Shown here one piece after another: positions 30,852 to 56,969 of a DNA stretch of 64,000 nt. The notes under the pieces were generated by a model. It had not been told where the DNA came from. It did not search any database and worked only from the letters and a program-made list of their open reading frames with translations. The translations under genes were made by a program, and so were the position numbers. Where the stretch lies: the NCBI GenBank assembly GCA_001871475.1, contig MNVE01000016.1, positions 133,343 through 197,342 on the forward strand, written 5' to 3'. The stretch's first letter is position 1. The number at the start of each line of letters is the position of its first letter. Source of the stretch: Candidatus Micrarchaeota archaeon CG1_02_47_40 (GTDB taxonomy: Archaea; Micrarchaeota; Micrarchaeia; Anstonellales; CG1-02-47-40).

Positions 30852-33791
30852 TTATATGTAGTAATTGCAGCCGTCCTCTTCTCCTCCCCCTCCTGCATTC
30901 AAATCCACTACAATCGTTTTCTCGCATATTGGGGATGCCGGATTTGCTACTCTTGCAGTATAAGTATTTGGCTGGGGATAGACGCAAACATTTTCACCAA
31001 AGCAGGAATTCCCCTCGCACGCGAGCTGATGCGTCGTATCCCCTTCATTCCCGCAGGAGAAATCTATTATTTGAGGCGGGGTGAAAAGGGAGTAGAGCAC
31101 GGACGCATCGCTGAAATCCAGCGATGGCGCCCTTGGGGAGCTTGGCAGGATTATAAAGCACGTTTGCTGTGTGGAGCTTCCCACAAGCACCTGCGTGCTG
31201 TTGAGATTGTTGGTCTCGTCTATTTCATCTATTAAATTCTGCGGGTCGGCTTCCATCTGGAGCGAATTCACTCCTATGAAATTGTCCGAAAGCTGAAAAG
31301 AATCGTAATTGTAAGTGTGCGACTCGTCCCTTGCAAGCCCGCCGGTGTAATTGAGCGTTGCGCCCCATTCCCCTCCCTGCCCGCCGCCGCTTAAGGAAGA
31401 CGCAAGGGCTGTGTTTGCCCCTGCCGGAATGTCCTGGCAGCCGATGTTTGAAACCTCAACTGTCAATGTGAATGTGTCTCCTGAAATGGGCATGATGGGG
31501 GAGTATTCATAACTGCTTATTATCAGCTCCGGTTTGTCTGTCACCTCAAAAGAATCCGAATCAACGTTGTCAAACTCGTTTGACTCGTAAATCGCATTAT
31601 TCACGTCTGCGGTGGCGGTCATCGTGTATGTGCCCTCGCCACCGATTGTGTAACTAAACAAATAATCCGGAGTTCCGCTTCCCGCAATTACCGGCTGGGT
31701 TGTCTGCTGGGAGTAGGAGGAAATCAACCCGGTGGGTTTTGCGACGGTGAATGTGCTCAAGAAAGGCGCATTCGTATCCGCCTCCCCGTCGTTTATCACA
31801 TAAAAGCCCACCTCTATCGTATCCCCAGGACAGATATATGGAGGAACATTCGCTGGAATGACCTGCGGGATGAGGTTCGGCAAATTTCCGGTTGGGGGGA
31901 TTGAAACGAAGCTGCCATCCCAGGCATTGTCATTCTCGTTGCTTTCGGAAACTTCCAGATTGCAGTCGGTAAAAACATTGACTTCGTTTTCACCTGCGGG
32001 AAGCTGGATTGGAAGGGCGAAGACGAGGGCTTGGCTTTCCCCGGACGCAAGCCCGGTTAAGTCCATCTCCTGCGTCTGGACGCTTCCTGATGGGGAAGTC
32101 AGGGTAAGGCGGGTGCAGAAAGTCTCCCCGACGTTTTCAATTCCGTTGTTTTCAACAGTCGCGGTTATCTGGGGACTCTGCCCCACCTCTGGGCTTTCCG
32201 GCAGGAGGACGCTTGTGATGCGCAGGTTTTTGCCCTGCACGAGTTGGCTTACGGTGAATGTTCCGCTCTGCTCGTTGTTGTTTTCATGGATTCCCTCTGC
32301 AATTACTCCGTTTGGCGCTGGAAGGCAGTCAGCCTTTATTCTCCACGTGTGCTCCGTTTCCGGTGCGAAATTAACAGTGTAATCAAAATCAACATCCGCC
32401 TGCGCATTTGGGGCAAGCAAAGAAGCAATTGCGAAAGCAGGGGTTTGCTGAACATCATCTATGTAAAGGCAGGTTTGAAAAGTTCCACTCGTTGCAGCAG
32501 AGCCTTGGTTTTTCACCTGCCCGTCAAAGTGAAGCGTGCTTCCCTGCGCCGGCGCGGTTGTGATGGGACCGGCATTCTGCACTATTAAGTCCGGCTGCTG
32601 GACGGGAGTGACTATCACGTTTTCAATCACAAGAGGCTGTAAGAGGGTTGGCGTTGGGATGTTTCCGCTGCAGACAATCCCGTCCGTTTCAAGCGCAAGG
32701 GAGATGGCGACGGTTCCAATGAATGCATTATTCGGGGCGGTAAGGGTTCCAGTGAATTGCTGGGAAGAGCCTGCATTTATCCAGGAGGAAGGCAAGCCTG
32801 AAAGTGAAAATGAAAAGCCGTTGTTTGCCGAAATGCCGGTAAGCCTTATCTTCCTCGGCTCGCTTGCCTGGCTGTTTATTAGGGTGAAGGTGACTGGAAT
32901 TGATGCGCCCGCATTCATGTTTACGGTTCCGGTCGGATTTGTGATTGCCGCGGTTGCGCCTACTGCCGGGTCGCGGACGTGAAGGGTGATGGAGGGAGTG
33001 TATTGGGTGGTGTGCGGAATCTGGCTTGCCGGCTGGCTTGAGATTGGAGGATTTGAATAAACGTATTTTATGAGTTCGGAAAAGGATTGTTTGTTTGCGT
33101 CTAGCGGTTCGACTATACCCTTGCAGTTGTTTGTTTGAAGTTTTGCTGTGAATTGAGGATTCGAAGGCGCGCTATAATCTTGGGTTGAGAGTGCGTTTTG
33201 AGGAAAGGTATAGATGGTAGGGCTTCCTGAAACCGATATTTCGGTACTTCCGGTGCAGATTATGCCTGCTTTTGCGGCTCCGTCCTGGCGGCTTTGAGCA
33301 TTTATGACGTAATTAACATCTCTGTTTGCATTAGTAAAAACTTGATTCGCAAGCGGGGAAACGAGCGTCTGGGGACCCACTTGGGGAAAAAAACTGTCTG
33401 TTGACTCCTGTATTTCTATGTTCGCTAGATTCGAACCCCATGATGGAGGGAATGATGAGGGCAGCCTGTTTGGTGCAACTACTGAAAAGTCATTTAAGTT
33501 GGCGACTGGCGAGTCGAGAGATTGCACTGCCTGCGCGGATATTTCTCCAGGACAGACATACGCGCCGTTTGGAAGGTCGGCTTGGGAAACCCCCGAAGAG
33601 AGCACTACCTCATCCGTTGAAACCTGAAGGGAGAGGGAATGTGCTATGTCTGCTTCGTAGGTTTCCCACACGTATCCAAGGGAACGCGAAGAGGAAAACA
33701 AAGCCGTTTCAGGTTCTATTGAGGTAGCGGCGTGCAGTGTTGCCGCGAGAAGAACAAACAGAAAAACGCCGTTAATTTTCATCAATCTCAC
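30852..33791 (-). CDS. Secreted surface protein with tandem CARDB/Ig-like domains
   Basis: Signal peptide, then repeated PDL/PNL...V.N.G...AD....I.E.NE.NN CARDB units and a Cys-containing C-terminus. Confidence 0.8.
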   Translation of the reverse strand: MRLMKINGVFLFVLLAATLHAATSIEPETALFSSSRSLGYVWETYEADIAHSLSLQVSTDEVVLSSGVSQADLPNGAYVCPGEISAQAVQSLDSPVANLNDFSVVAPNRLPSSFPPSWGSNLANIEIQESTDSFFPQVGPQTLVSPLANQVFTNANRDVNYVINAQSRQDGAAKAGIICTGSTEISVSGSPTIYTFPQNALSTQDYSAPSNPQFTAKLQTNNCKGIVEPLDANKQSFSELIKYVYSNPPISSQPASQIPHTTQYTPSITLHVRDPAVGATAAITNPTGTVNMNAGASIPVTFTLINSQASEPRKIRLTGISANNGFSFSLSGLPSSWINAGSSQQFTGTLTAPNNAFIGTVAISLALETDGIVCSGNIPTPTLLQPLVIENVIVTPVQQPDLIVQNAGPITTAPAQGSTLHFDGQVKNQGSAATSGTFQTCLYIDDVQQTPAFAIASLLAPNAQADVDFDYTVNFAPETEHTWRIKADCLPAPNGVIAEGIHENNNEQSGTFTVSQLVQGKNLRITSVLLPESPEVGQSPQITATVENNGIENVGETFCTRLTLTSPSGSVQTQEMDLTGLASGESQALVFALPIQLPAGENEVNVFTDCNLEVSESNENDNAWDGSFVSIPPTGNLPNLIPQVIPANVPPYICPGDTIEVGFYVINDGEADTNAPFLSTFTVAKPTGLISSYSQQTTQPVIAGSGTPDYLFSYTIGGEGTYTMTATADVNNAIYESNEFDNVDSDSFEVTDKPELIISSYEYSPIMPISGDTFTLTVEVSNIGCQDIPAGANTALASSLSGGGQGGEWGATLNYTGGLARDESHTYNYDSFQLSDNFIGVNSLQMEADPQNLIDEIDETNNLNSTQVLVGSSTQQTCFIILPSSPRAPSLDFSDASVLYSLFTPPQIIDFSCGNEGDTTHQLACEGNSCFGENVCVYPQPNTYTARVANPASPICEKTIVVDLNAGGGGEEDGCNYYI

Positions 33792-35332
33792 TTCACATTA
33801 AAGGTCACTCCAACCCTGAAAAGGTTTGATGACGGAAGCTCAATTCCATACTCCATGTTTGAAGGGGTTTTTATGTAGTCTGCATTCAAGCTTACTCCGT
33901 ATTTTGAGTTAAGCTCAAGTGAGAGCGATTTGTTTTTGTTATTCGGGTCAAAGCCTGCGAACATCCTTATTTTCTCAAAATGCGGAACCTTCTTTGAAAT
34001 CAGTCCAACCTCGGCAAGACGGGTGGTTTTTCCAAAGCTTTCCTGCAGAGAAAAACTGCCCGCCAATGCGATTGCAGGCACACCGAGTTTGTCTTCGGGC
34101 AGAGAATACCGCGACTGGTATTCCCCTTTGCCCGAAAGCCCATGGGAGCCTGACAGCTGGACGTTTCCAAGCCCTAATGGAAGATTTAGAGCGGAATCCA
34201 GTTTAAGACGAATATCTGCCTTGTTCTCGCGGAGATAATCGTGCCTTGCGACTACCGTGCCTGCAATGACGCCGGGCGCGTCCCAAATGAGGAAGTGGGT
34301 GCCGACGCCAACTCCGAGGCTGGAAAGAAGAGGCTGTGAAACTGTTTTTGAGGCAAAAGTGCCGTCGTCATTTCTTTCCCACTGGCGGCAACTGGAGTCG
34401 CCGAATTTTAGTTCCACGTTAAGGAAATCCTTGCCAGTCAGGTAATATTGCGTGTTCACTTCCTTAAGGAAGGCATTTCGTATCTCTTTTGCATTCGCAA
34501 GCGCCAGAAATTCCGAGCCTGCGTGTTCGGAAAGCATTTCGGATGCCTTTTTGAAATCGCCGGACTGGATGGCACTTATAAAGTCGCTCTGTGTGTGTCC
34601 GTTGGAGAGGAGTTGCCCCCACATCACATCGGAACTGCCAAGACCGCCGAGAAAAGCCGCCATCTGCCCTGAATCCTTCCCGGAAAGTCCGTCTGAGAGA
34701 AGATTCAGGAAAGCAACTCCGGTATTCATTGATGAGAAAGTAACTGTGTAGAAGAATTGTGTCGGCTGGAATTGCGGGCTGATTTGCTGCACAAAATCAG
34801 CTGAAGGGTGGAAAGAGGGAATTTCCGCAAGGGGCGGGGCTTTTATCTTGCGCAAACCGAAGGTTGCGCCTGAAGCTGTAGTCGAATTCAAGTTTTGTTT
34901 TTTTGAGAAGACGCTCCTTAAGGTGTAGGCATTGATAAGTCCGCAGGCATAGCTTGCAATGTCCTTTGTTTCCCTTTTTTCGGAAGAAGCGGTGAATTCT
35001 TCAAATGTTTTGCGGTAAACGCCCAAAAGAGCCGCCGCTTGCAGGGACTTTAGAAAGCCCTCGCTTAACGCCGTTTCCGTGAAGGGCTTTGCCTCTGCGA
35101 TGGTTTTGTAGCCGCTTTTCCCAAAAAGGAAGCGCATTGCCAAGATGGCGCTCTTTTTGTCCTCAAGATTAACCGCTTGCTTCGCGAGAAAAAGAACCGC
35201 ATCGGTGTCTGGGGCTTTTTTCAGCAGTTTGAACAGCCTTTCCGCCTCTTCCTGCTTCCGGCTGGCGATGGCTGAAAAAAACTCATCTGCAACCCCTTGG
35301 GCGTTTATTTGTTTGGGCGGCATAAACATCAC
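33788..35332 (-). CDS. Hypothetical protein: helical N-half, amphipathic beta-strand-rich C-half
   Basis: Overlaps both neighbours by 4 nt. C-terminal strands such as SLGVGVGTHF, NVQLSGSHGL, SLSLELNS, GVSLNADY and FRVGVTFNVK. Confidence 0.75.
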   Translation of the reverse strand: MMFMPPKQINAQGVADEFFSAIASRKQEEAERLFKLLKKAPDTDAVLFLAKQAVNLEDKKSAILAMRFLFGKSGYKTIAEAKPFTETALSEGFLKSLQAAALLGVYRKTFEEFTASSEKRETKDIASYACGLINAYTLRSVFSKKQNLNSTTASGATFGLRKIKAPPLAEIPSFHPSADFVQQISPQFQPTQFFYTVTFSSMNTGVAFLNLLSDGLSGKDSGQMAAFLGGLGSSDVMWGQLLSNGHTQSDFISAIQSGDFKKASEMLSEHAGSEFLALANAKEIRNAFLKEVNTQYYLTGKDFLNVELKFGDSSCRQWERNDDGTFASKTVSQPLLSSLGVGVGTHFLIWDAPGVIAGTVVARHDYLRENKADIRLKLDSALNLPLGLGNVQLSGSHGLSGKGEYQSRYSLPEDKLGVPAIALAGSFSLQESFGKTTRLAEVGLISKKVPHFEKIRMFAGFDPNNKNKSLSLELNSKYGVSLNADYIKTPSNMEYGIELPSSNLFRVGVTFNVK

Positions 35333-38300
35333 TCTCCTGAAAACACCGGTACGTAAAGCGCTGGCTTAACTGCATTCAGCGACATGCCGGATGCGAATTC
35401 TTCGTTTTTCTTTGTTCCCCAGACGATTATGCTGTTGTCTTTCTCGTATTTGCCGGCTATAAGCTCTCCTCGGAGGGAGGCGCTCGCCAGCTGGCCTTGT
35501 TGCATAAACTTCAGTTTTGATTCTTCCTCTTTCTGCTCGCCGATTTTCCCTATGTCGGAAGGCAGGATTCCGGAATAGGTGCCAATGGTTACAGGCGGCG
35601 GCGAGCCTTCTTTGCATTCCTTATACACTGCCCTGCCTCCCTTCCATTCACCATAAACCAGCTTTCCCTCCTCGTTGGTCCTTAGGATGACCCCGCCGCT
35701 TTTCCCCTCGGTATCGGTTTTTAGAATGGTTTCTCTTGGAACAGGCGTCAGCATGCCGGCTCTTTCGCCATTCAGGTCGGTCAGATAAACCGGTTCGTCT
35801 GCCTTCTCCTGCGAAAGCACGTAGTAATGCATTTTCGTTCCTTCAGGCACGAATGAGAATCTGTCATTTGCATCCGTTCGATAGGCAAACATTGAGGAAC
35901 CGGTAAAATCTATCTCTCCCTTGACATCATGTTTTGCATCCACTCCGAACTGTTTGACATCAGACGTGGTTTTGACATTGTCGTGCCGCGGAATCTGGAC
36001 TTCGTAAACATTTACGACCTCAATTATCGCTTCCTGCTGCACGGTTTGCGCATTCGGATAAAGAGTGCGGTTGCTTGCTGTCGCAGCTATTTTCACGAAG
36101 CCCTCGTTTTCTGTTGGAATTGGCACTTGCGCAGTTCCATCAGAAGAAAGCTGTGCGGGAATGTTTTCCTTTCCCTCAATGAGATTGTATACGCCGTCTT
36201 TTGCTGCGGAGAAATAGAGGGAATATTTCGCTTCTGTTGAGCTCTTTTTCTCTTCCCCAATAGGCGCGCCGGCATCTGCCGCCAGTGAAGCTTTGAGAGA
36301 TGCGCTATAATCGCTTCCGATAAGCACTTTCCCCTGCGCCTCTATCTCCATCGCCAGCGTTTCAAGAGCCTTCTTCTCAACCGCCCCTCTCTCCGGCGCA
36401 ACCCTGCTTGAAATCTGCCGCAGGGGGTTGGTCAGCTCCTTCAGCTTCGTTATCTCCGCATCATTCAAACCCAGCTCTGCCTTCTTTCCGTCAATAAACT
36501 TCCTGTTGTCATAGCCTCCGTAGAGGATTGGCTGGAGGACGTTAAGCACGCCTTCAGCTTTGTCCCCAAATTCTTCCTTAATATCTCCGACAACCTTCAC
36601 GTGCTGTGCGTCCGTTCCGAACCTTGTTGAGCCCGTGCCTGTTATGGTTACTCCTGCAGCCAGATGCGCAAGCAGTATCGCTGATGGGATTCCGCCGGTA
36701 TTCTCAAGCCCTTTAATTATTGCTGCTTTCTTAACCTCGTCTCCGTTTGCAACTTTATCAATTGCCTGCTCCAAACTTATGTCCTTATATTCATTATACT
36801 TCGCCATCACCTTGTCCGCCATTATCTTTGTATCTGTCAGCTTGTCCCCCCTGTACCGGTTATAGACAAGCCTCTCTTCTTGGCTCCATGCATCCGTTAC
36901 CTTCACCCAAGCGCCTGCCTTGTTGGCTGCCTCCTCTTCGGAGGCGAAGGTTCCAAGCTCCTTCCCGCTGACATCGTAATAATTGCCCGTTGTCCTGTGA
37001 ACGTCCTTGTAAGTGCTCCCAAACTCCGCCGCCTTCCCTTCTCCCATTCTCCCCTGCGCCCTTGCAAGCTCTGCGCAGGCAGAGGTCTGCAGCCCCCTCA
37101 TCATATATTCCATGAAAAGAAGAGTGTTGCTAACTTTGAGTTTGCTGTCTTCCTGCAAAAGCACGTCCTTGTACTGCTCCATTATGCTCTTGTTGGCTTC
37201 GTCTGCCCTGACGAACATCTGCTTTTCTTCATCATAATGGAAGGTAAGGGCAAAGCACCAGTAGAAATAGTAGTAATCCGCACTGCGGGAAAGGTAGGCT
37301 TCCGGATTTTCAAGAATCGCCTTTATGAGAAGCTCTTCCCCTGGCTTTTGGAATATTTCGGCTATGTGCGCAGGCGCATTCATTTTATCAAAGCCGACAG
37401 CAAAAGGATAACCCGAAAGATGAATCTCCGCTGAATCTGCATAAAAACCGTATTTGTCCGCTGGAACAGCCGTGCCGGTGATTTGTGCAGGGGATTCCGC
37501 CTTTGCCGTCGCTTCTTCCTGCGGGATTTCAAGCTCTCTGCCTTTGTTGTTTGTCAGCAATAGGTAGTAAATGCCCCTTTCCTCCCTGCCGGCAGCCGAA
37601 AGCCCGTATTGTGAGAGCCTCTGCAGGGTTGCCAAGTCCGCCTGCCCCCTTCCTTGTTTTGCACCATACTGAAGCTCAACTTTGCTTCTTTTTCCGTCAA
37701 GCACCTCTTGCAGGAGCCTGCGCCCCTCATCGCTCATTTTCAAGTCATTCCCAACAAGTTCGTAGGGGGTTGCCGCAGCCTTTTGAGCTTCCTCTGCAAC
37801 AGGCGGCGTTTTTTCCAAAACAGGCGTTTGACCCGCCTGGAGTTCTGGCTCTTTCTCAAGCTTTCCATAAGCCTTTGCAAATTCCTCGCCCAGCTTGTAA
37901 TCCAGAAATGCCTGCATCCTGCTGTTTATCAGGGCGTCCTGGCTTCTGCCAATCAATGCATTGCCCTCTTTTGAAAGATGATAATTTTTCAGCGCGTCCT
38001 GGACGATTTTCCTTTCATTCTCGCTCACAGGCGCAAGAAATTTCACGTAAGCGAGCTGTATTTCGTTCATCAGCTGATTTTGTTTCTCCTGCGCAAGTCC
38101 ATTGTAGAGAGCTTTGTCGGATTCATTTAGGCGCCCCGCAAAATCCGGCTTTGCGTTCTCGGTCGCGGGAAGCCCAATCAGCGCTTTTGAAAGCTCATCA
38201 TATGCTGTTTGGTAAAACTCCCTCTTATCGTTTATCCCGAAAGCGTTTGCATAGTCGCGCACCCTGTTTGCGGCGTCTGCGTCAAGCTGCGCCCCGTCAG

Positions 38301-39204
38301 GGGCGGTTAAGTAATTGCCAAACCCCCCCGCGTATGAGTAGCTGCCAAGGATGTTTGCTACCGTGCATAGCTCTATCGAGAGATAATATGCGTTCATGCC
38401 TTGCGGAGATTTTGAGAATTCCTGCGCGGCATCCTTGAGCCGGTCAGAAAACAACAGCAGGTATCTTGCAAAAGCCGCCGCTTCCCCCCTGTTGGCTTGG
38501 GGTATGCCGTTCATTCCTTGGGCATGTGCCTGGAAATCCCGAACCGCTTGGACGCCGTGGTGGCTTTTAAGGAATTCCGCGAAAAGCTGCGAATATTCCT
38601 GCCTTCGCTCAAGAAGGGAAAGCGAAGCGGAGCCTATCTTGGGACCTTCTTCCTTTTTTTCTTGCTGTGCCGCTGCTGGCTCTGCCGGCAACTTTCTTTG
38701 TTGGGAAAGAGACTGCTCTAATTGATATCTCATTTGCTGCTCTTGAGTTAGGAAAAGATTTTTTTGGAGTTCGCTTATTTTCTTTTGCTGTCCTTCAGTT
38801 TGGGTTGGCGCCAGAAAGAGGGAGTCTGTGCTTAAGGGAGGGCGTTTTTTCCCTAATCTGACTCCGAGTGGGGTTTTTTGCAGTTCCTCCTTTTGCGGAG
38901 CCTGCGGTGTTTTTTTCTTTTCTTTTGTATCTTTTATTCCGTTAAGAATTCCGAGGAGATGAAGGGTCTGCCCTTCAATCTTTATCGCCTTGTTGAACTG
39001 CCCGTCACGGAGCTGTTCGTTGAGGTCGGATATTATCTCTTTCCCCTTCTCTTGACCTAGAAGCTCCTTGAGGATGCCCTTGGACTCTTCCGTCAGGGAA
39101 TAGCTGTTAATCTGCCACTTGTTCTTTTTCAGGATGCCCTGCTCAACAAATTCTTTGAGCTTTTGCTTGTCAAGCTCCTCTGCACGCTTAACCTTCTGCT
39201 CCAA
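35329..39204 (-). CDS. Large hypothetical protein (1291 aa)
   Basis: Uninterrupted ORF with TTG start and GGTGG RBS. Charged helical N-terminal and middle parts, beta-rich last ~300 aa. No signal peptide seen. Confidence 0.8.
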   Translation of the reverse strand: MEQKVKRAEELDKQKLKEFVEQGILKKNKWQINSYSLTEESKGILKELLGQEKGKEIISDLNEQLRDGQFNKAIKIEGQTLHLLGILNGIKDTKEKKKTPQAPQKEELQKTPLGVRLGKKRPPLSTDSLFLAPTQTEGQQKKISELQKNLFLTQEQQMRYQLEQSLSQQRKLPAEPAAAQQEKKEEGPKIGSASLSLLERRQEYSQLFAEFLKSHHGVQAVRDFQAHAQGMNGIPQANRGEAAAFARYLLLFSDRLKDAAQEFSKSPQGMNAYYLSIELCTVANILGSYSYAGGFGNYLTAPDGAQLDADAANRVRDYANAFGINDKREFYQTAYDELSKALIGLPATENAKPDFAGRLNESDKALYNGLAQEKQNQLMNEIQLAYVKFLAPVSENERKIVQDALKNYHLSKEGNALIGRSQDALINSRMQAFLDYKLGEEFAKAYGKLEKEPELQAGQTPVLEKTPPVAEEAQKAAATPYELVGNDLKMSDEGRRLLQEVLDGKRSKVELQYGAKQGRGQADLATLQRLSQYGLSAAGREERGIYYLLLTNNKGRELEIPQEEATAKAESPAQITGTAVPADKYGFYADSAEIHLSGYPFAVGFDKMNAPAHIAEIFQKPGEELLIKAILENPEAYLSRSADYYYFYWCFALTFHYDEEKQMFVRADEANKSIMEQYKDVLLQEDSKLKVSNTLLFMEYMMRGLQTSACAELARAQGRMGEGKAAEFGSTYKDVHRTTGNYYDVSGKELGTFASEEEAANKAGAWVKVTDAWSQEERLVYNRYRGDKLTDTKIMADKVMAKYNEYKDISLEQAIDKVANGDEVKKAAIIKGLENTGGIPSAILLAHLAAGVTITGTGSTRFGTDAQHVKVVGDIKEEFGDKAEGVLNVLQPILYGGYDNRKFIDGKKAELGLNDAEITKLKELTNPLRQISSRVAPERGAVEKKALETLAMEIEAQGKVLIGSDYSASLKASLAADAGAPIGEEKKSSTEAKYSLYFSAAKDGVYNLIEGKENIPAQLSSDGTAQVPIPTENEGFVKIAATASNRTLYPNAQTVQQEAIIEVVNVYEVQIPRHDNVKTTSDVKQFGVDAKHDVKGEIDFTGSSMFAYRTDANDRFSFVPEGTKMHYYVLSQEKADEPVYLTDLNGERAGMLTPVPRETILKTDTEGKSGGVILRTNEEGKLVYGEWKGGRAVYKECKEGSPPPVTIGTYSGILPSDIGKIGEQKEEESKLKFMQQGQLASASLRGELIAGKYEKDNSIIVWGTKKNEEFASGMSLNAVKPALYVPVFSGE

Positions 39205-45758: not shown

Positions 45759-45843
45759 AACCGAGGATGAATTCTTCTTTTAAATGAGCGTTGAAGTTAT
45801 CAAAAATGATAACTTTAAATACTTTTTGGAAGAATATATTATC

Positions 45844-46506: not shown

Positions 46507-46508
46507 AA

Positions 46509-46700: not shown

Positions 46701-46703
46701 AAG

Positions 46704-47450
46704 ATGAACACAAAAGAGCTTGGGGAGTATGCCCGTCTGCGGGGCTTGAACTTAGGGCAGGCTGAAAAGGATTATTACCAAAATATACTCCTTTTTCTGC
46801 TCTACGGCAGTGTCTCAAAAGAACTTGTCTTCAAGGGAGGAACAGCCCTCTCAAAATGTTATGGATTAAACAGATTTTCAGAGGATCTTGATTTTACAGT
46901 TCTGGAGGAAAGGGATTTCATTATTATTCTGGAAAAGGGGCTTGGGGAATTTGGCATTCTTCACATGGTAAAGGAGGAGAAAACGGCTGCCCAAAGCAAA
47001 AAATACAGGCTTAAGGTGCAGGGCCCTCTTTACAGAGGGCTTGAGAGAACGCTCTGCTCAATAACGCTTGATTTCAGCTTTAGGGAGAAGGTGCTTTCCC
47101 CTCCGCTTATCAAAACCATCGGGCATCATATGGATATAATACCGGTTTTTGACGTTTATGTTATGAGCCAGAACGAGATATTGGCGGAGAAGATAAGGGC
47201 GCTTCTTGCAAGAAAATCCGCAAGGGATTTGTATGACATTGTTTTTTTATTAAGAAACGGGGCGGTTGTTGATGAGAAAATGATAAGGCAGAAGCTTGCG
47301 CTGTGCGGAATGGAATTTGACAGAAAAACATTCATTTCAAGATGCGGTTTGCTTGAGGGGATATGGGAAAGCGAGCTTAAATCGCTTGTGAAGAATGTCC
47401 CTTCCTTTAAGGAGTATGTTGGAATGGTGAAGGGGAAGGTTGAGAGATAG
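46704..47450 (+). CDS. AbiEii-family nucleotidyltransferase toxin (type IV TA)
   Basis: AEKDY, FKGGTALSKCYGLNRFSEDLDF, AEKIRA and RDLYD motifs. Confidence 0.9.
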   Translation: MNTKELGEYARLRGLNLGQAEKDYYQNILLFLLYGSVSKELVFKGGTALSKCYGLNRFSEDLDFTVLEERDFIIILEKGLGEFGILHMVKEEKTAAQSKKYRLKVQGPLYRGLERTLCSITLDFSFREKVLSPPLIKTIGHHMDIIPVFDVYVMSQNEILAEKIRALLARKSARDLYDIVFLLRNGAVVDEKMIRQKLALCGMEFDRKTFISRCGLLEGIWESELKSLVKNVPSFKEYVGMVKGKVER

Positions 47451-47896: not shown

Positions 47897-50800
47897 TCAG
47901 AAGGAACGGGTGATTTTCCCATATATGAAGTAATCGTTCTTCTTTGTCGGTTCGTATATCCATTCATCAACAACACCAAATCCGAAGTAGCCTGGCTTTC
48001 CGACGATGCTGCCGATTACTCCAAATTCGCCCTGGGCGGTTGCAGAGCGGATTTGCTCGTATTGGGAAAGACCGAGTCCAAGGCATGCCCTAAACTGTCC
48101 AAAGTATTTTTCACCTTTGAAGCCGCCAGTATAAAGCGGCGCACCTTCATCTTCGCCGTATCCTGCCTGCTTCGTGAAATTGAGCATGTAATTGTAAGTC
48201 CTGCCTGCGTGGGTAAAAGTTACCTTCCAAAGGTCTGAATCCACATAAACCCCATTAACCATAATCGGACCCCAGGCAACCCCCCCCTCTGTGGCAATGC
48301 CTCCTTTGCCTATTGGGGAGTTCGGCGGGAGTTTTTCCGCAAAAAGAAGCAGTTTGAAGTTGTCAAGCTTCCAGATGGCGCCCACACCAAGGTTTGTATT
48401 TTTCAGTTTTTCATCCTCCCCAAGGTCAAAACTGGCGACTACAGAGAAATTATCTTTCAAATCAATCATCGTTGAAACGATGTTCCTTTTCTTTCCGCCT
48501 TCAACTCCGGGTGTTTGGGAAAATGAGAGCATCATGCCCGGCGTTCCATCCTCGCTCCTTATTTTCATTGTGAAATCGCGTATGCTGCCTCCTGCAAGCT
48601 GATTGAGAAGGGAGTAATTATCAGCCCCCATGAATGATGATTTCATCGCTTCAGAAACTGTGTAGAGCGCGGCTTTCTTTTCTACCTCAGTTGAGGCAGG
48701 AGTGTTTAAAACTTCCTGATATGCGCCATATGCACTCTTCAGGGCAGTTAAGTCAAGGTTTTGGGGCACGAAAAGCGAGTATGCGCTGTTCTGCGACGGG
48801 TCTGACCAATTTGCCATAACTTCCATGTCTGCAGTTCCAAGCTTGGTTTGGAGATTTGTGGTGTAGCGGTTGTAGCCCTCTTCGTACTTTCTGTATTGAC
48901 TGCGCATTGTCGTTGCGAGATATTTTCCTTCAAATCCTCCAACGAAAGAGTCAAGCTTTTGCCCTTCGCCCGTCTGGGTTTCATCAACGCGCCATGACCC
49001 AAATCCATATCCTCTTGCAAGAAGCCCTGTCTCTCCTTTCTGGCGGGTGTATTCGCCGCTTTGATATCCTATATTCGCCCCTCCAAAGTGCGAATTGCCA
49101 TTATGATCGCTTAGCGCGATTGTAGCGGCAAGTATGCGCTCGTTTTCAAACTCCTTTCTCGCGGAAGTTGATGCTATTCCTATCTGGTTTTGCGCGCCCT
49201 GCGCGAGTTCGCCCTCAACCTTGCTTATGGTTTCCATGTCGCCATAATTTTGCTGAAAAATGTTTCCGGTGCCTGTGCCGGTAAGGTTGCTAAGCTTGTT
49301 CTCGTTTAGAGTATACCAGCCTATTTTCACTTCGTATTTTTCGCCTGATGCCTGCACGGCTTCGGCGCGCTCCCTTTGAACGGTTTGCGCATTGATTCCG
49401 GCAAACTTGATGCTTTTCCCAAGCGCATCGCTTCCAAGCGCAGCATAGAAGCCAGTATGAGTGCCTGCAACATTCTCCTGCCCTAAAGGAACATCATAAA
49501 TTCTCTGCTGGATGCCTACGCTTCCCTGAAACGCGCCTTCATCATATGAGCCAATGCGGGAGAATATGTTTCCTACCTTTTCAATGGAATCCTGTGATGT
49601 AGTATAAAGCGCTTTTCTGACATCGTCTGTCAAAATGAGTTCAACCCAAGTCGTGCCTGCCATGCGCCAATAGACGTGCAAATCATCCATGTAATTGCTT
49701 GTTTCGCTTGTTTGGGCTTGCGAGCCGGTGCTGTGCCAGTCATAATGCATAAGCAGGGAGGATTGGGCATACGGCGAGCTGTTGAGCTGTGCCACAACAT
49801 TTTCGTTGACTGCCTTGTATGACTGGGATTCCTGCTGTGTTGCCTGTAAATTGTATTGAAGATTTCTGATGAGCGCGCCGCCTATGAGCGGCAGTTTGCT
49901 ATTTTGTATTTCAGCGTATGCCTGCTGATTTGTTGAATCTGTGCCTGCATTTTCAGAGGTGGTTGAGATTACGCCTCCGCTTGCGTTTGAGAGGGGGTTT
50001 ATGGAGTTCCAAACTCCTTCTCCAGTTATTCCTTTGTGTTGTGCATTATCAAACGTGTTGCCTCCTGCAAGCGTGCCGTCTAATGAACCGACTCCGCCCA
50101 TTCTCGGAAAACCCCTTCCAAGCGCCCCCTCAAGAGACTCGTCAAGGGCGCGCTGTGCGAACGTTATGTCTGTGTAGTACTCCCTTTCAAGCCCTCTTAA
50201 GAAGAGCCTTGCAAATCCATCCCGCGTCCATTGCCTGTTCTTGAAAGAGTAAAGCTCCCTGCGGCTCTCCTCAAGCTGATAGGGCATCGAGCTTTGGAAT
50301 GTCTGCCCGATTGTGGTTATTGGGTATGGCTCGTCAAATGGTCCGAATAAATGCCTTCCGAATTGGTCGCGCAAAAACCCGAAAACGTTGTCATAAGGCG
50401 AAATCAGATATTCATTAATTCCGGTTATTGCCGATGGCTTTATGTAAATAATTCCCTTGTCGCTGACACCTATCTGTTCATTGGTGAAATTCGCGACAAA
50501 ATTATCCGTATTCAGGTCGTATTGCGCCATGCTTGAGAAAAAGGCGCCAAGCTTTGCTTTCTTTTCCTCTTGGGTGCCCGGATATCCGTAAACGGTCATT
50601 GCATACTCTGCGGTTGAATTGAGTATTTGCAGCCTTGTGGAGTAATCAACCACTGAAATGTCCGGGAATATTTTTTTAAGCAATTTCTCCTGCCCCATAA
50701 GCTCGTGCATTACGGCATTTGATTTTCCCTTATTGGCAGAAAATAGGTCGCGCAGGGGATTTGCACCGTAAATTGAGTTTGAGATTTCATTTATGCCCGT

Positions 50801-52210
50801 ATCTATAGAGAAGGCCGCATTTGCCATGCTGACACTTCCTGTTGCATTCTGTTCGGGATTTTGGAGTATGCCCCAAATCTGGTTCTGGTTTTGGCTAAGC
50901 CAGTCAAGCCCCTGCGTTATGTGCGTAATGCCGCTCATGTCTGCGCCGCCAACATTCATGCCTGCAAGAAGCTGTTGTTTGTAATCAAGAAGCCTGCCAA
51001 GGATTGGGATGAGCTGCATATTAAAAACGTTTTGCGAAAGGCCGTTTGCAGAGCCAAAAAGATTATTCAGATTTGTATATTCCGTCCTGAAAGCCGCTAG
51101 ATATTGCACTGCAGATTCATAGGCAGGCGTCGCATTCAGGTTTAACTGGGAGATTGGCAGTTCTTTGTTGTTTATCAGGCTTATTCCCTTTAGGATTGTT
51201 TCCATATTGTATACTGAACGCCTGTAAAGATACGCCGCTTCCGGTCCGTTTAAGTTGAATACTTGGTCGGGCAGGACGTTCACTGCTGCAAAGCCGGAAA
51301 CCAGCTCATCTGCCGCCGAGGAATTTTTCTGCCTTGCCCTTTCAAGGTTTCCCTTTATCGCGCCTTCTTCAAGAAGTGCGTTTGCAAGTGATTTATACTG
51401 CTCAAGAATGCCTGCATTCTTTCTGATGCCTTGCGTGTTTATGCCGTGTGCAGTTAGGGTTTTGTCGTAGGCGGACATGTCCGGACCATAAACTGCCTTT
51501 ATTGCAAATTCTGCTGCGGCAGGGATTATCAGAAATTTTCCAGCAGCATCCTTCTTTTCAACATCGTCCAGTTTTCCAATCATTTTTTTTATTGCTTCCT
51601 CGTCGCCCATATAATTGAAAATGTATTCCCTTGTGGCATAATCAACTGCGTTTATAAGTGAAACGCATTTTGCGGCATCCCTTGAGAATGCCTGCAGGGA
51701 TTGCCCAATAATTATATTGCTGTTTTTGAGAAGCTCCAATTCCGTTGCGTCATCCCTAATATTGCTGTGTTTGTCGTCCCATTGCTTGCAGAGGGAGTCA
51801 AAACTCTGCAAGTCGTCCCAGTTTGAATAGTTGATTATCTGCATTGTCAGGTTGAAAAAATCTTTCTTAAGCCCAAGCGTATGAAGCGTCTGGTCAAATT
51901 CATTTTTACCTTCTGTTGGGGTGTATTGTGTGTCGTTGTAGACTTTTTTTGGAGTTGAAACGAGAATATCGCTTTTTGGCAGTTGTGTTGGTGGTTCCCC
52001 GGCTTTCTGTAGAAGATTTTCAAGATTTCGCATATATGCAAGCGCCTTGGCTTGCTCATTTGATTTGTATGCACTTTGAAGATTTCTCAATTCCGCCAAA
52101 AGAGAGGGATATCGCTCGGTGCCTTTAAAGGCATCTACCCTCGTTTGAAACTCCTCTATTTGCCTTGGTTCGATGGAAAGTTGCAGGCTGCCCATAATTA
52201 ACACTCTCAC
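47897..52210 (-). CDS. Very large hypothetical protein (1437 aa): helical N-half, beta-barrel-like C-half
   Basis: Uninterrupted ORF overlapping the upstream stop. The C-half is Gly/Thr/Gln/aromatic-rich with alternating strands and ends YFIYGKITRSF. Start may be ATG 52195. Confidence 0.8.
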   Translation of the reverse strand: MRVLIMGSLQLSIEPRQIEEFQTRVDAFKGTERYPSLLAELRNLQSAYKSNEQAKALAYMRNLENLLQKAGEPPTQLPKSDILVSTPKKVYNDTQYTPTEGKNEFDQTLHTLGLKKDFFNLTMQIINYSNWDDLQSFDSLCKQWDDKHSNIRDDATELELLKNSNIIIGQSLQAFSRDAAKCVSLINAVDYATREYIFNYMGDEEAIKKMIGKLDDVEKKDAAGKFLIIPAAAEFAIKAVYGPDMSAYDKTLTAHGINTQGIRKNAGILEQYKSLANALLEEGAIKGNLERARQKNSSAADELVSGFAAVNVLPDQVFNLNGPEAAYLYRRSVYNMETILKGISLINNKELPISQLNLNATPAYESAVQYLAAFRTEYTNLNNLFGSANGLSQNVFNMQLIPILGRLLDYKQQLLAGMNVGGADMSGITHITQGLDWLSQNQNQIWGILQNPEQNATGSVSMANAAFSIDTGINEISNSIYGANPLRDLFSANKGKSNAVMHELMGQEKLLKKIFPDISVVDYSTRLQILNSTAEYAMTVYGYPGTQEEKKAKLGAFFSSMAQYDLNTDNFVANFTNEQIGVSDKGIIYIKPSAITGINEYLISPYDNVFGFLRDQFGRHLFGPFDEPYPITTIGQTFQSSMPYQLEESRRELYSFKNRQWTRDGFARLFLRGLEREYYTDITFAQRALDESLEGALGRGFPRMGGVGSLDGTLAGGNTFDNAQHKGITGEGVWNSINPLSNASGGVISTTSENAGTDSTNQQAYAEIQNSKLPLIGGALIRNLQYNLQATQQESQSYKAVNENVVAQLNSSPYAQSSLLMHYDWHSTGSQAQTSETSNYMDDLHVYWRMAGTTWVELILTDDVRKALYTTSQDSIEKVGNIFSRIGSYDEGAFQGSVGIQQRIYDVPLGQENVAGTHTGFYAALGSDALGKSIKFAGINAQTVQRERAEAVQASGEKYEVKIGWYTLNENKLSNLTGTGTGNIFQQNYGDMETISKVEGELAQGAQNQIGIASTSARKEFENERILAATIALSDHNGNSHFGGANIGYQSGEYTRQKGETGLLARGYGFGSWRVDETQTGEGQKLDSFVGGFEGKYLATTMRSQYRKYEEGYNRYTTNLQTKLGTADMEVMANWSDPSQNSAYSLFVPQNLDLTALKSAYGAYQEVLNTPASTEVEKKAALYTVSEAMKSSFMGADNYSLLNQLAGGSIRDFTMKIRSEDGTPGMMLSFSQTPGVEGGKKRNIVSTMIDLKDNFSVVASFDLGEDEKLKNTNLGVGAIWKLDNFKLLLFAEKLPPNSPIGKGGIATEGGVAWGPIMVNGVYVDSDLWKVTFTHAGRTYNYMLNFTKQAGYGEDEGAPLYTGGFKGEKYFGQFRACLGLGLSQYEQIRSATAQGEFGVIGSIVGKPGYFGFGVVDEWIYEPTKKNDYFIYGKITRSF

Positions 52211-54324
52211 TTAAGCGTTTGGAGATAGAGTATCCTGTTGCTATCGGTTGTAAAGGTATTGAGATCGGTTGCGATTTGAATGAACTCATTTTCGTTGCGA
52301 CTTAATCCGCTAAGTTTAGTTTCAAGCTCGGGAGATATTGAAAGATTCAGTGTGTTCTTCACGAAACCAACCAAATCCGCGCTGCTTTTCACTTCCTCCG
52401 CCTTAATCGGCGCTTGGGCTGGCGTTTCCTCCACCTGCGCTTTTACTGACACTGATTCAGGCAACTCTTCTACCTCCGAATTTTCTTCAGCACTTGTGCC
52501 CGACACGCTAACCTCAAACTCCAGCAGTCCGGCGTCTTTGTAGGCTTCGCTGGCTTTCACTATCTTGTAGGCTTCTTTCAGGCGTTCAGATGAAGACTCA
52601 AGTTCAATAAGTTCGACATACTTGCTTTTAATTGCCTCAAAAAATTCCTTATTTTCAAGCATATGCCGAATCATCTCGGGATTTATCTTCTGGTATTCTT
52701 CACTGCCCATATTGCAGGCTGTAAGGAAATTCTTTAGAGTTTCGGCGTTTTTATCTATCTCTTCTTTCTTCCCTGACTGGAAGTTCTCTTTCAGGTTCCC
52801 TGCACGGTCATTTGCAATTTGACTGATAACATTCCTTAAAGTCACTTTATTGCCGTCTGCGTTCTTGAAAAGAGTGTCGTCTATGTTTCCGGCGCTTATC
52901 CTGCCTGCCTCCTCTTTTGCGTTTGCAAGAAGCTTCTCTTTGTTTTTTGCGTCCTGGCTGATGAGGCTTTTCAGAGTTGTCTCAAGGGTTGCATCAGTTA
53001 TTTCGTATTTGCCGGTTCCCTTCCCATTTTTCTTTATTTCCTTGGCAATTCCGGCAAACTCGGCGCACGCAAGATAGAGTTTCTTATCGTCTTTGTTCGT
53101 CACGTTCGCAAGCCCTGCAAGGTATGCCGACTGCGCCTCGGTTGAGGGCTCAACGAAGAGGGTGTTGTTAGTGCGGTAAGTAATGAGGATTTGGAGAAGC
53201 TCGGAGGAAGCAAATGAGCGCTCGGGTGCGCTGTTGAGAGCGGAGACTGTTGTTTTTCTTCCATTGATGTATAGAGCCGGCTCCTGCAAGCTGATTGCGC
53301 TTGCGATTGCGTTTTTTGCTTGGCTGACGATGGCGTTGATGGTGGAGATGATTGCTTCCCCATTTGGTATGGGTGCTTCGGATTGCACTTCAGTGACATC
53401 AGGCTTTTTCTCAACCGGCTCGTAGTTTCCCTTTATTCCGGTTAATATGTCTGTCCACTTGTCTTTCCATTTCTGCGTTGTCGCAAGAGAGTTCAGGAGC
53501 TCGCTTTGAACGCCCCCATCCTTGTCAAACATCTTCTCAAGCATCGCATCTGCGGTTTCCGCCTTCAGCCCGTCAGCTATTGTTTTTGCCTTCGGATATC
53601 CCTTTGCGGTGAAAAGCGCGAAAAGCTCCCTGAAAAGAAGGGTTTGTTTTTCATCAAGCAGAGTGTTTGCATCCTTTTTTTGCAGATAGCCGACAAACTC
53701 GCTTCTCTTGTGCTTTGTCCTGTCTATAAGCCCGTTCTCAAACATCCATCTTAAAGCAAAGAACGCGCCTTCCTTCATCATCTTCTGCTTCAGGTCGGCT
53801 CCGGTTATGTCCTTGCCCTCTGCCGAGTAGGTGCTGCTGTCTTTTATCTTTTCTTCGGTCGCGGTGTTGAAGAAAGGAATATTGCCAAGAAGGACTTTTT
53901 TGTCGGCTTCTGAAATCAGCTTATTGTATATTGGGCTGAAAACGCCGTCTATGTGAGTGTATGAGAGCGTTTTGGCGGCTGCCGGTGTTGCCGCGTTTTC
54001 AGTTGCAGTAATTCTGTTCAAATCCGCAATGAAATCGTCTACTTTAGAATAATTCTTGTCAGTGCCAGTAAATCCGAAATGGGAAAGATACATGCGCTTC
54101 AAAGAGTTGCCGGAAGTGCGGCAGATATTCCAAGTTGAGTCTATTTTTTGAGTTTTAATGTAATCTAAAGCTTCAACTGCTGTTTCAGCTGCGTTTGTTT
54201 TATTCGGTGGGTTTTCTTTGAGGCAAGTTATTATGCTGTTGCGAAATTTTGCGAGTTCCTTCTCCTGCTCTTGGGAAACCACAGTTTTTTTCAACTGCAA
54301 CTCAAATAAAAACACCATGTTCAT
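52207..54324 (-). CDS. Large hypothetical protein (705 aa), predicted all-helical and charged
   Basis: Uninterrupted ORF with GGAGG RBS. Lys/Glu/Ala-rich, no TM or signal peptide seen. Confidence 0.8.
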   Translation of the reverse strand: MNMVFLFELQLKKTVVSQEQEKELAKFRNSIITCLKENPPNKTNAAETAVEALDYIKTQKIDSTWNICRTSGNSLKRMYLSHFGFTGTDKNYSKVDDFIADLNRITATENAATPAAAKTLSYTHIDGVFSPIYNKLISEADKKVLLGNIPFFNTATEEKIKDSSTYSAEGKDITGADLKQKMMKEGAFFALRWMFENGLIDRTKHKRSEFVGYLQKKDANTLLDEKQTLLFRELFALFTAKGYPKAKTIADGLKAETADAMLEKMFDKDGGVQSELLNSLATTQKWKDKWTDILTGIKGNYEPVEKKPDVTEVQSEAPIPNGEAIISTINAIVSQAKNAIASAISLQEPALYINGRKTTVSALNSAPERSFASSELLQILITYRTNNTLFVEPSTEAQSAYLAGLANVTNKDDKKLYLACAEFAGIAKEIKKNGKGTGKYEITDATLETTLKSLISQDAKNKEKLLANAKEEAGRISAGNIDDTLFKNADGNKVTLRNVISQIANDRAGNLKENFQSGKKEEIDKNAETLKNFLTACNMGSEEYQKINPEMIRHMLENKEFFEAIKSKYVELIELESSSERLKEAYKIVKASEAYKDAGLLEFEVSVSGTSAEENSEVEELPESVSVKAQVEETPAQAPIKAEEVKSSADLVGFVKNTLNLSISPELETKLSGLSRNENEFIQIATDLNTFTTDSNRILYLQTLK

Positions 54325-54337
54325 CAGCCTCCTTAAA

Positions 54338-56410
54338 TCATTTTAAAGTTTCTTCTATCGCGGCGTCAAAATCATCTTTATTCTTTATGGAATTTTTCTT
54401 CTTTTTTAACTCCTCTGCCAAAGCTTCTCTTAAGTCGTTTATGCTGTTGTTGGGGTGCCTTTTTTGCAGTGTGCCGTCAAACTCGCCTTTTTCCACGTCT
54501 GAAAGGGCGGCATCAAAGCTGAAGGTCGTGTCCTGCGCTGCCGGTTGCAGGAATTTTTTCAGCTCCTCTCCAAGAATTTTTTGTTTTGTGGAGTCGGTTA
54601 TCTCTTCAAACCGTAAATTCAAGCTGTCTTTTAGGGCTTGCATCTTCGTGCTGTCGCCTCCGAGTATTTCGTATGGGGTGGTAATAATTTTCACCGTGCC
54701 CCCAGGGGCTTTTTCCCAGTTGATAGGTGTATTTCCTATTTGAACTATCCAGTCTTTGGTGACAGATTTTTTGGCTTCGTTTAGTGCTTCATCCTGTTTT
54801 TTCTGCTTTTCCAGCTGCTGCTTCGTTTGTTCTTCCTGCGCTTTTTGTGCCGCTTCGTTCGCTTCGTGCTTTTGGGCGGATTTTTGCGCAGTAGAATTAA
54901 AGTAGAATTTTCTTGGGAGGACCGATTCTGCGGCAAAGGCGGGTTGGCGCGCCCAAAGTTTCGCGTCTGCCAGCAATGGCTTTGCCACACGAATGGCCCC
55001 TTCACCGATAACGCCTCCAAGGTAAGCAGGTGAGTATGCCGCCCCTATCCCGATATTTGCCAGCTTTGTTTGCCCCGCCATATGCTCCACCCTATGTTCA
55101 TCTACCCACTTAAGTGGAGAAACTCCTTTTGGTTTCCATTTTCTAAGCCGGACTCCCAAGCCCTTGATTTTCTTAGTGCTGGTTGCTATTGCTTTTCCAG
55201 CTCCCTCGTTGAGGAGTTGTGATGCTGTTTTTTCTCCGATTTCACTGCCTGCGTTTCCAATTACATTTTTTCCTGCGCCCATGGCGATGTCATACTCGTC
55301 AACAACCTTCAGCGATACTCCATTTTCCCCGAATTCCAGAGATAATTTAGCATTCGGATTGCGGCGCAATTTGCGAGAAACCTCCAAAGCAACGGTTTCC
55401 ATATCCTTTACGAAAGAATTGTAAACCTCCCTAAGCTCGGGATTACTGAAAAGAGTTTTTCCTTTTCCCTCTAAAAGAACCGTCGCGCCTCCGGCAGTTA
55501 CTTCCCTTCCTGTTTTGGTGGAAACGTCAATGGCTGTCTTTTCTACTGCTTGGTTGAACTCATCCACATGCTGTTTTAGGAACTTCGCAGTTGCGTCCTC
55601 AATTTCCTCCCGAGTTATGGCTCCTCCTTTGTTTTTTATCAGCGCAAACAAATCTTCTGCAGTCGCATTCTTGACGTAATCAATAGGATTTGTGTTCTTT
55701 AGGATGTATTTAGGTGCGTTTAGCGCAAAATCGCTGTAAGCTTGGGAGAGCGCCCTCCTTGCCGCTTGGGAGGTTATGGCATCCGCCATCATCTTCTCGG
55801 CTTGTTTGGCGCTTAACTCACCTGCGGCTTTCACGGCTTCGGCTTCCGTTGCCGTTTGGATAAGCTTCGTTTCAGCAACGCTTTTTGTGACTGGGTTGCC
55901 GGCTGCCAGTTTTACTGCGAGATCGGCACTTTTTATAGCATTACTCTCACTTCTTTCCAAAACTGCGCGCTTGACAAGCTCCTTGCTTGGCGGCATAAAT
56001 CCCTCCTCCAGTGCCACCTGCGCAAGCGGTTTTACTGCTCGTTCTGCGACTTGCCTTCCAAGTTTTTTTTCTGCTTCTTTGGCGGTGTCTTCAATCATCT
56101 TCTTGGCTACCTTTACAGCTATTGGGCGCAGCGCCATTGCCTCCGCCTTGAGCATAATCCCGACAGGAGGGTATAACAGTGCGGCATCACCTACAAGAGA
56201 GATTGCAAAAGCACTTGCCATGATTCCTGCCGCCCCCCACTGTCCGCGTGCGGTGTAACATATTCCGTCTTTGAATGCTATGGCTGTGCCGGTTATGGGG
56301 AGCCACTCAAGCGCCTTCTCGGTCTGTGTTTTCCCCTTTTCAGGGTTTATCCAACTTCCAGTAATCAGCTTATCCCAATTACTCGGCTTTTCTTGTTGAG
56401 TTTGAGTCAT
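54338..56410 (-). CDS. Hypothetical protein (690 aa) with an N-terminal pre-toxin-TG-like hydrophobic hairpin
   Basis: LEWLPITGTAIAFKDG....RGQWGAAG...AFAISLVGD...PPVG..LKA, then an Ala/Lys/Glu-rich helical region. TAATG coupling to the upstream gene. Confidence 0.75.
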   Translation of the reverse strand: MTQTQQEKPSNWDKLITGSWINPEKGKTQTEKALEWLPITGTAIAFKDGICYTARGQWGAAGIMASAFAISLVGDAALLYPPVGIMLKAEAMALRPIAVKVAKKMIEDTAKEAEKKLGRQVAERAVKPLAQVALEEGFMPPSKELVKRAVLERSESNAIKSADLAVKLAAGNPVTKSVAETKLIQTATEAEAVKAAGELSAKQAEKMMADAITSQAARRALSQAYSDFALNAPKYILKNTNPIDYVKNATAEDLFALIKNKGGAITREEIEDATAKFLKQHVDEFNQAVEKTAIDVSTKTGREVTAGGATVLLEGKGKTLFSNPELREVYNSFVKDMETVALEVSRKLRRNPNAKLSLEFGENGVSLKVVDEYDIAMGAGKNVIGNAGSEIGEKTASQLLNEGAGKAIATSTKKIKGLGVRLRKWKPKGVSPLKWVDEHRVEHMAGQTKLANIGIGAAYSPAYLGGVIGEGAIRVAKPLLADAKLWARQPAFAAESVLPRKFYFNSTAQKSAQKHEANEAAQKAQEEQTKQQLEKQKKQDEALNEAKKSVTKDWIVQIGNTPINWEKAPGGTVKIITTPYEILGGDSTKMQALKDSLNLRFEEITDSTKQKILGEELKKFLQPAAQDTTFSFDAALSDVEKGEFDGTLQKRHPNNSINDLREALAEELKKKKNSIKNKDDFDAAIEETLK

Positions 56411-56895
56411 TATTCCACCCCTCTAGCATAGCTTACAAAACTCTCTGCAGCTTCTTTTCCCCTATGTTCATTAAGCCAATTTTGAATGTGTGTAAAATTT
56501 GCCTTGTATTCTTTATTTCCGTCTATTTCCATTTTGAATTTCGGGGATTTTTCATACATGGCATAAACAAGGACAGAATAAACTGTGGCTACGTTTGCTG
56601 ATTCAGCAAGAAGCGCATTTTTCTCCTCCTCGCTCTTTGCAGATGAATAGCGGTTTTGGAGGTCGCGCACATAATTTATTGCAAGCGCATTTGAGAACCA
56701 ATCAGAATACTTCATTATTTTCAGTATTTCTTCCGGGTTTGTTATTTCCTTTGACTTATCAAACAGTATTTTCTTCCCCTCAAGAGTAACAGCTTCAATG
56801 AACTGCGCCTTCTTATCCAATTTCAGCTTCGGGACTATTCCCTTTAATGAAACTTTCACCATGTTTTTTTGAGGTTTATCCGCCAAGTAAATCAC
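56410..56895 (-). CDS. Hypothetical protein (161 aa), first gene of the large-protein operon
   Basis: ORF downstream of a TTTATAAATA box (~56929-56938, minus strand). Its stop overlaps the next ATG. Start uncertain. Confidence 0.7.
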   Translation of the reverse strand: MIYLADKPQKNMVKVSLKGIVPKLKLDKKAQFIEAVTLEGKKILFDKSKEITNPEEILKIMKYSDWFSNALAINYVRDLQNRYSSAKSEEEKNALLAESANVATVYSVLVYAMYEKSPKFKMEIDGNKEYKANFTHIQNWLNEHRGKEAAESFVSYARGVE

Positions 56896-56969
56896 CTCTC
56901 GTTTGTATGAAGAAAATAGGATTATTCTTATTTATAAATCCATATGTAGTATTTTGGGGGAGATAATGG

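Follow-up and report, generated by a model that had tools for sequence, protein, structure and literature searches.

A recurrent four-gene cassette of Micrarchaeota that may encode an exported, fast-evolving conduit

The subject here is a four-gene operon on the minus strand, positions 47897-56895, of a 64,000-nucleotide stretch of DNA from Candidatus Micrarchaeota archaeon CG1_02_47_40 (contig MNVE01000016.1 of GenBank assembly GCA_001871475.1, positions 133,343 to 197,342 of the forward strand). That whole stretch is called the window, and the genome to which it belongs (G000) is 1.15 Mb and 93% complete. The small first gene of the operon is named D, the second, of 690 amino acids (aa), C, the third, of 705 aa, B, and the giant at its end A. 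The order of the four genes is kept in other Micrarchaeota, D is coupled to a hydrophobic hairpin encoded by the gene that follows it, B and A turn over as mosaics, and a start tag, M-F-x-F-Q, is shared by many of the relatives' cassette genes. On this basis the operon is tentatively read, at somewhat short of an even chance, as a fast-evolving cassette for an exported conduit or translocon directed at a target cell, most likely a two-membrane bacterium. Such a reading would entail export without a signal peptide, assembly of the products into one structure, distinct roles for C, B and D within it, and a bacterial target.

Gene order and mosaic turnover

The order D, C, spacer, giant is seen in the genome of the window, in G031, G273 (at two loci), G028, G320, G339, G411 and G412, and at the metagenome locus L052. 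G339 is a member of another Micrarchaeota order, and the G031 locus, from another family, has a D homologue (36% identity) followed by genes of 1125, 807 and 1621 aa. Within genus g14 the chromosomal slot is fixed, with housekeeping genes on either side. The cassette is cut by contig ends in G016, G043, G234, G409 and G414 and at one G413 locus. The first-pass annotation, which called the four products orphans, had set two outcomes against its own proposal, namely that the genes do not co-occur in related genomes or that the structures match S-layer, viral or housekeeping proteins. The order is kept in genomes from other families and from a second Micrarchaeota order, and no such match was found in Pfam, PHROG or fold searches. 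The products are orphans in that no named family fits them, but homologues and gene order are present elsewhere in the phylum.

Within this order the later genes are mosaics. The giants of G031 and G273 are alike only in their first 169 residues (47% by BLAST), while B of L052 matches B of G273 at its front and B of G225 at its end. The crossovers fall inside genes, and turnover of this kind is as expected of proteins under conflict. [One spacer gene, L023:10420-13602 (G273:C17), has TPR repeats, unlike the other copies, and at L029:2071-4130 (G358:C42) paired IPIVG/IPILG hairpins close two of the late cassette genes, one of which has a peptidoglycan-binding-like motif.]

Coupling of D to the hairpin of C

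D, with its start refined as described below (56410..56886, minus strand; 158 aa), is the most conserved gene of the cassette and was found in 17 Micrarchaeota genomes in total. A D profile matches 12 of 401 genomes of the phylum, G000 and one genome of another order among them, and a word-index search returned four D proteins. Single checks were positive in five of ten genomes (G409, G411, G412, G414 and G413) and negative in G046, G001, G225, G415 and G229.

C (54338..56410, minus strand) has a conserved N-terminal hairpin followed by a variable region rich in Ala, Lys and Gly. The hairpin module covers residues ~19-126 (56033..56356, minus strand), with the consensus ALExxPxxGT..DA...G...D in alignment A6, and C is the only one of the four proteins with a hydrophobic stretch (residues 59-87). 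The conserved hydrophobic hairpin is usually encoded by the gene directly after D. A hairpin profile matches 11 of 176 genomes of the order, and in all 11 D lies directly upstream. Three of these, G409, G411 and G412, were found by their hairpin first and then checked for D, each with a positive result; G414 is not independent, since its locus is identical with profile member L055. There are 18 genes after D, ten of them in the hairpin profile and eight held out. Four of the eight score with E from 2e-13 to 2e-3, one is weak and three are missed; the missed gene of G031 is homologous to a member of the profile. A word-index search for the hairpin gave five proteins, all already in the alignment set.

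The core of D (residues 54-157) is modelled as all-helical with a predicted local distance difference test (pLDDT) score above 90. Fold searches with it gave nothing above background, the best match in the PDB, at Z 5.7 (root-mean-square deviation, rmsd, 4.0 over 86 aligned residues), lying within the background of helical proteins. None of 14 D sequences matches an NCBIfam model of SycD/LcrH-family chaperones. For C, an Atlas structure search with its model (predicted template-modelling score, pTM, 0.27) gave TM at most 0.19 by query. A prediction of the complex of D (48-161) with the C hairpin (20-115) scored 0.10 against a mark of 0.32, which speaks neither for nor against their contact. 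D is a candidate partner or chaperone of C, and C a candidate membrane-inserting subunit.

The start tag and the spacer gene

Many of the relatives' cassette genes start with M-F-(L/I/V)-F-Q in place of a signal peptide, often after a ribosome site. The coding pattern of this tag has 368 hits in 127 of the 176 order genomes. In family f6 there are 153 hits in 42 genomes, against 28 for a reversed control, and in families f13, f14 and f17 the tag is near background. Its context was examined in a biased sample of 20 regions from five tag-rich genomes, where 21 of 25 hits start open reading frames (ORFs) of 145-1429 aa, two of the 21 with a Pfam domain above cut-off. Tagged proteins elsewhere carry Por_Secre_tail (L070:1184-2686, 35.2 bits) and GNAT (L076:6225-8765, 21.7 bits) domains, and the tag is thus taken to head varied cargo. 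To judge by the sequences, the tag is conserved at the protein level. Its interpretation as a DNA element was rejected, as synonymous codons vary, and so was that of D as a general reader of the tag, which is frequent in genomes that gave no D. The tag may be an export label. [At L075 (G046:C8) two tagged genes, at 4893-7340 and from 7530 onward, diverge from one short spacer in the slot that is D's in relatives.]

B (52207..54324, minus strand) occupies a hypervariable spacer slot, and no homology was detected between it and the B proteins of relatives. Its start, MVFLFELQ (54295..54318, minus strand), is a worn form of the tag. The two strict tag hits in G000 are not gene starts, and a 742-aa orphan with the worn start MLIFQ (G000:C15:34742-36970, minus strand) is, with B, the sole clear tag carrier of that genome. 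The giant of G339 has a signal-peptide-like start instead of the tag.

The giant and its predicted barrel

A (refined as 47897..52195, minus strand; 1432 aa) has a strand-rich C-terminal half and an N-terminal half conserved among its homologues. Full-length homologues are G031, P0016, P0018, P0019 and P0020. A matched one of 60 relatives (G031), its profile matches 3 of the 176 order genomes, an exhaustive profile search of 1.84 billion representatives gave nine proteins, A itself included, and a word-index search returned the window's own A only. Profile comparison by hhalign connects A to the giant of G273 (97.6%, E 3.5e-12) and, weakly, to a second giant family (G225, G412, G028, G046 and L052; 72.5%, E 3.3e-5) over the strands and an inserted hairpin.

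The C-terminal half of A is predicted, with low confidence, to form an outer-membrane-type beta-barrel of about 23 antiparallel strands (47900..49174, minus strand; residues ~1013-1437 of the ORF as first read) ending in a Phe, with a helical hairpin inserted at residues ~1138-1198 in the same low-confidence model. Among the matches of the model listed from VIA, 49 of 50 are outer-membrane or organellar barrels, the top one being MOMP (Z 11.8, rmsd 5.4, 228 aligned) and the best barrels reaching Z 11-12. Foldseek returned ushers, TonB receptors, porins and VDAC at E of ~1e-4 to 4e-3 with poor geometry, and the Atlas lead to OMP_b-brl has a score of 0.90, from 16% of the cluster members. The beta-barrel-like half that had been noted in the giant is supported to this extent, namely by a model that most resembles outer-membrane barrels.

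In the alignment the two faces are at least 0.2 apart in 18 of the 23 strands, a count made with the better face picked and without a null. [A score for alternation along the strands was dropped, as helical membrane proteins ranked highest on it.] A beta-signal-like C-terminus is present in 8 of 15 late genes, none of 17 middle genes and 20 of 497 ORFs of G000. The Omp85 factor (PF01103) was found in none of 5 genomes and in 7 of 14 controls; very divergent factors could escape this search.

Proposed mechanism and target cell

In the proposed mechanism, D would partner or escort C before export, and export would use the tag as an address label, with no signal peptide. The hairpin of C would enter a membrane, B would span the gap as an interchangeable spacer, and A would form the outer pore. 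It is speculation that the barrel-assembly machinery of the target helps to fold A. The roles of chaperone, translocator and stalk that the first-pass annotation gave to the components are likewise inferred.

Three things favour a bacterium as the target: the barrel type, the missing Omp85 and scattered peptidoglycan motifs. The peptidoglycan-binding-like motif DGxxGxxT is in 3 of 39 cassette proteins (the G339 spacer, the G320 spacer and a G358 late gene), against 1 of 497 G000 ORFs, with G320 the only fresh hit because the pattern was written after two cases had been seen. G000 also encodes a protein of ~420-450 aa with a PG_binding_1 domain (41.8 bits; C15:116500-117852, minus strand; locus L100:2501-3853) and no evident signal peptide. 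[A lytic-transglycosylase-like motif seen in it by eye was unconfirmed by Pfam and PDB searches.] For other DPANN archaea, peptidoglycan hydrolases and predatory traits are reported (PMC12352652, PMC9723730).

In its boldest form the proposal casts two-membrane bacteria as victims or food of some Micrarchaeota. The archaea would export, by a non-Sec route keyed by M-F-x-F-Q, a self-assembling trans-envelope conduit with a giant barrel folded by the victim's machinery, a peptidoglycan-gripping spacer and a D-escorted inner-membrane hairpin. Taken as a whole this is unlikely. If true, it would amount to a cross-domain delivery system not yet described and would place outer-membrane-type barrels in archaea, where to our knowledge none is known.

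A number of observations weigh against an exported conduit aimed at a bacterium. Besides the definition of the DGxxGxxT pattern after sight of two of its three cases, the G339 domain that scores 25.7 bits for PF01471 (cut-off 23) comes to 20.6 bits, below that cut-off, when scored as a whole protein, and B of the window is without such a motif. The putative hosts of Micrarchaeota in print are archaea, and some Micrarchaeota orders may depend less on hosts (PMC12892359). In the window D, C and A are without the tag and B has only its worn form. The gene that follows D escapes the hairpin profile in G031, G320, G016 (where it is cut) and G413, and scores weakly in G273b. Neither D nor the hairpin nor A has a match in G001, the closest relative; G027, G358 and G022 deviate from the plain four-gene form; G046 has a hairpin gene without D; G225, in the same slot, has spacer and giant only; and G413 carries a lone second D. 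No homology to the giant of G339 is detectable by profile comparison with A. The model of A (residues 638-1437, from 10 sequences) has a mean pLDDT of 47.6 and a pTM of 0.40, with pLDDT of 57-87 only over model residues ~520-800 (the last 280), and its rmsd to barrel matches is ~4-8 Å. As the model is poor and the rmsd high, A may instead be a large soluble sheet. Lastly, A ends in Phe yet fails the strict C-terminal pattern by one residue (Arg at -3).

Other explanations

The cassette may serve the cell's own envelope, with A an outer-layer barrel or sheet tethered by B and C, in the manner of the SlpA/OmpM tethers, and with fast variation allowing escape from viruses or a match to partners. 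This is possible, though on the unlikely side. Barrel-type giants also lie at other loci, for example in the slot of the 30852-39204 unit (described below) beside a secreted CARDB protein, an SlpA-containing complex is among the Foldseek rows for A (8agd, E 5.9e-4), and A has 15 N-glycosylation sequons (1.0 per 100 residues). The account of the ARM-1 envelope offers something to each side, a 21-nm barrel-like docking structure in that envelope on the one hand and an outer layer that is an S-layer on the other (PMC11329633). A core envelope gene, moreover, would not be expected to be as patchy as the cassette, with D in 12 of 401 genomes; the window's genes are without signal peptides and no Omp85 was found in five genomes. 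Peptidoglycan-binding motifs would have no substrate in the archaeon's own wall.

A polymorphic toxin locus, in which C would be pore-forming or toxin-carrying, D its immunity protein, and B and A a carrier or display against competitors, is doubtful. The hairpin had been called pre-toxin-TG-like in the first-pass annotation. What stands of this is a conserved hairpin tied to D, with an Atlas lead to pre-toxin TG of 0.84, below the bar of 0.9. Membership of PT-TG fails by Pfam, none of 12 hairpin sequences matching PF14449 and none of five genomes having a match above cut-off. The C-termini of C vary freely, as would suit a toxin. So would the locus L024 (G022:C47:1-7223), where three hairpin paralogues form an array flanked by two D copies, with an extra D-hairpin pair on G022:C168, and the lone D of G413. 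However, D is both the most conserved gene and upstream, whereas immunity genes usually vary with the toxin and follow it. A known toxin domain was found in none of 49 cassette and tagged proteins, nor in any of the 17 scanned against NCBIfam.

It is very improbable that the cassette is a domesticated module for viral ejection, comparable to the internal proteins with which short-tailed phages form a tunnel through the envelope: the size ladder (small, ~700, ~700, ~1400 aa, all without signal peptides) resembles such modules and most Atlas feature hits for C fall in viral clusters, none reaching 0.9, but there is no PHROG match, no relative of D in viral contigs (scanned with a single D protein only), no hit by phage tblastn with the hairpin and no convincing BFVD match (the A model gave poor-geometry matches and one phage-borne porin only), the g14 cassette sits in its fixed chromosomal slot between housekeeping genes and codon use is near the genome's own.

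Gene starts and genomic setting

The four genes had been described as of 161, 690, 705 and 1437 aa, behind a single TATA box, and this is borne out by the sequence, junctions included. The TATA box, TTTATAAATA (56929-56938, minus strand), lies upstream of the operon as its putative promoter. D and C overlap by 1 nucleotide (nt) in TAATG, C and B are separated by a 13-bp gap with AAGGAGG inside, and B and A overlap by 4 nt in GTGA when A is given a GTG start. Two starts were refined. As first read, D is an ORF of 161 aa (56410-56895, minus strand) that starts at GTG 56895; as that codon lies within D's own GAGGTGA ribosome site, the start is probably TTG 56886, in agreement with database record P0012 (158 aa). 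A, first read as an ORF of 1437 aa (47897-52210, minus strand), probably starts at ATG 52195, giving the 1432 aa of database record P0006, whereby the 4-nt overlap of B and A becomes an 11-nt gap.

Each of the four genes is single-copy in G000. As had been claimed, they are without a signal-peptide-like N-terminus and without a recognisable enzyme motif: A, B, C and D have no Pfam, PHROG or NCBIfam match above cut-off, and searches of these collections and of PDB sequences with single proteins and with profiles gave nothing above cut-off. As far as sequence comparison goes, the parts of the cassette fall in no family tested. By Pfam the operon is flanked by a DJ-1/PfpI gene and an AbiEi/AbiEii pair. 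[The latter, a type IV toxin-antitoxin pair at window positions 45784-47450 (plus strand), converges on the operon's end.] A foreign island is unsupported, the codon index of the operon's genes lying at percentiles 6-69 of the genome.

A separate three-gene unit at 30852..39204 (minus strand) encodes a 1291-aa orphan, a 514-aa protein with a barrel-type end and a 979-aa secreted CARDB protein with a hydrophobic N-terminus. It had been suggested that the operon acts with this unit. The two share no sequence homology, but a link is indirectly indicated by shared tag and design, in that the unit's counterparts in relatives have the same start tag and a barrel-type end. In G046 and G028 a tagged gene follows a homologue-like copy of the kinase gene that neighbours the unit, which we take to be PGK.

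Elsewhere in the window are a CDC48-type AAA ATPase with LAGLIDADG domains, probably an intein (7150-10692, plus strand), and a 664-aa NHL-repeat beta-propeller protein with a possible coiled-coil tail (23140-25134, plus strand). Elsewhere in the genome, near 89142 of G000:C15 (minus strand), a 4596-aa open frame matches the DUF87 ATPase, one of five DUF87 matches in that genome.

Comparison with known systems

No published account of such a cassette, or of beta-barrel proteins in Micrarchaeota, was found by title or the start of the abstract; supplementary gene tables could mention them. D provides a conserved 158-aa marker, the hairpin a module and A a predicted outer-membrane-type barrel, and the tag flags further candidate substrates genome-wide. 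Were the target bacterial, the cassette would reveal how a Micrarchaeota archaeon gains access to a bacterium; were the barrel part of the archaeon's own cell, views of archaeal envelopes would have to be revised.

With the outer-membrane barrels (porins, TonB-dependent receptors, ushers, VDAC/Tom40) A is predicted to share a meander of ~23 antiparallel strands with short turns, most of them more hydrophobic on one side, and an aromatic residue at the C-terminus. It differs from them in its ~5-12% identity and absence of a Pfam or PDB sequence match, in its occurrence in an archaeon, without a signal peptide and with no Omp85 found in the genome, and in its 1000-residue N-terminal part and inserted helical hairpin.

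The type III translocon operons (sicA-sipBCD, lcrH-yopBD) offer an analogy in a small helical gene before a hairpin protein, uncleaved N-terminal signals and co-translated genes. Unlike theirs, the small protein of the cassette fits no chaperone family and no fold above Z 5.7, and the cassette includes a barrel. Archaea are not known to have an injectisome.

C shares with PT-TG (PF14449) toxins a hydrophobic Pro-Gly hairpin, Gly/Lys-rich sequence and a variable C-terminus, whereas the cassette has no Pfam match to them and no toxin domain was found in it. In one paper PT-TG is itself proposed as a cleavage site rather than a translocator (PMC13483458).

The likeness to podophage ejection proteins (T7 gp14-16 and P22 gp7/20/16) is that of a set without signals proposed to span a two-membrane envelope, with peptidoglycan modules in some copies. 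The cassette differs in its chromosomal site, its predicted beta-barrel and the lack of viral homologues in the searches made.

Closest in biological question are the contact structures of DPANN archaea, the nanotubes and docking barrel of ARM-1/AS-7 (PMC11329633) and the ARMAN needles (PMC6349945), whose proteins are not identified in the available portions of these two papers; the ARM-1 nanotubes are there said to originate in the host (PMC11329633). In several other families of Micrarchaeota the tag is near background. The cassette provides testable candidates for how DPANN archaea contact and tap other cells.

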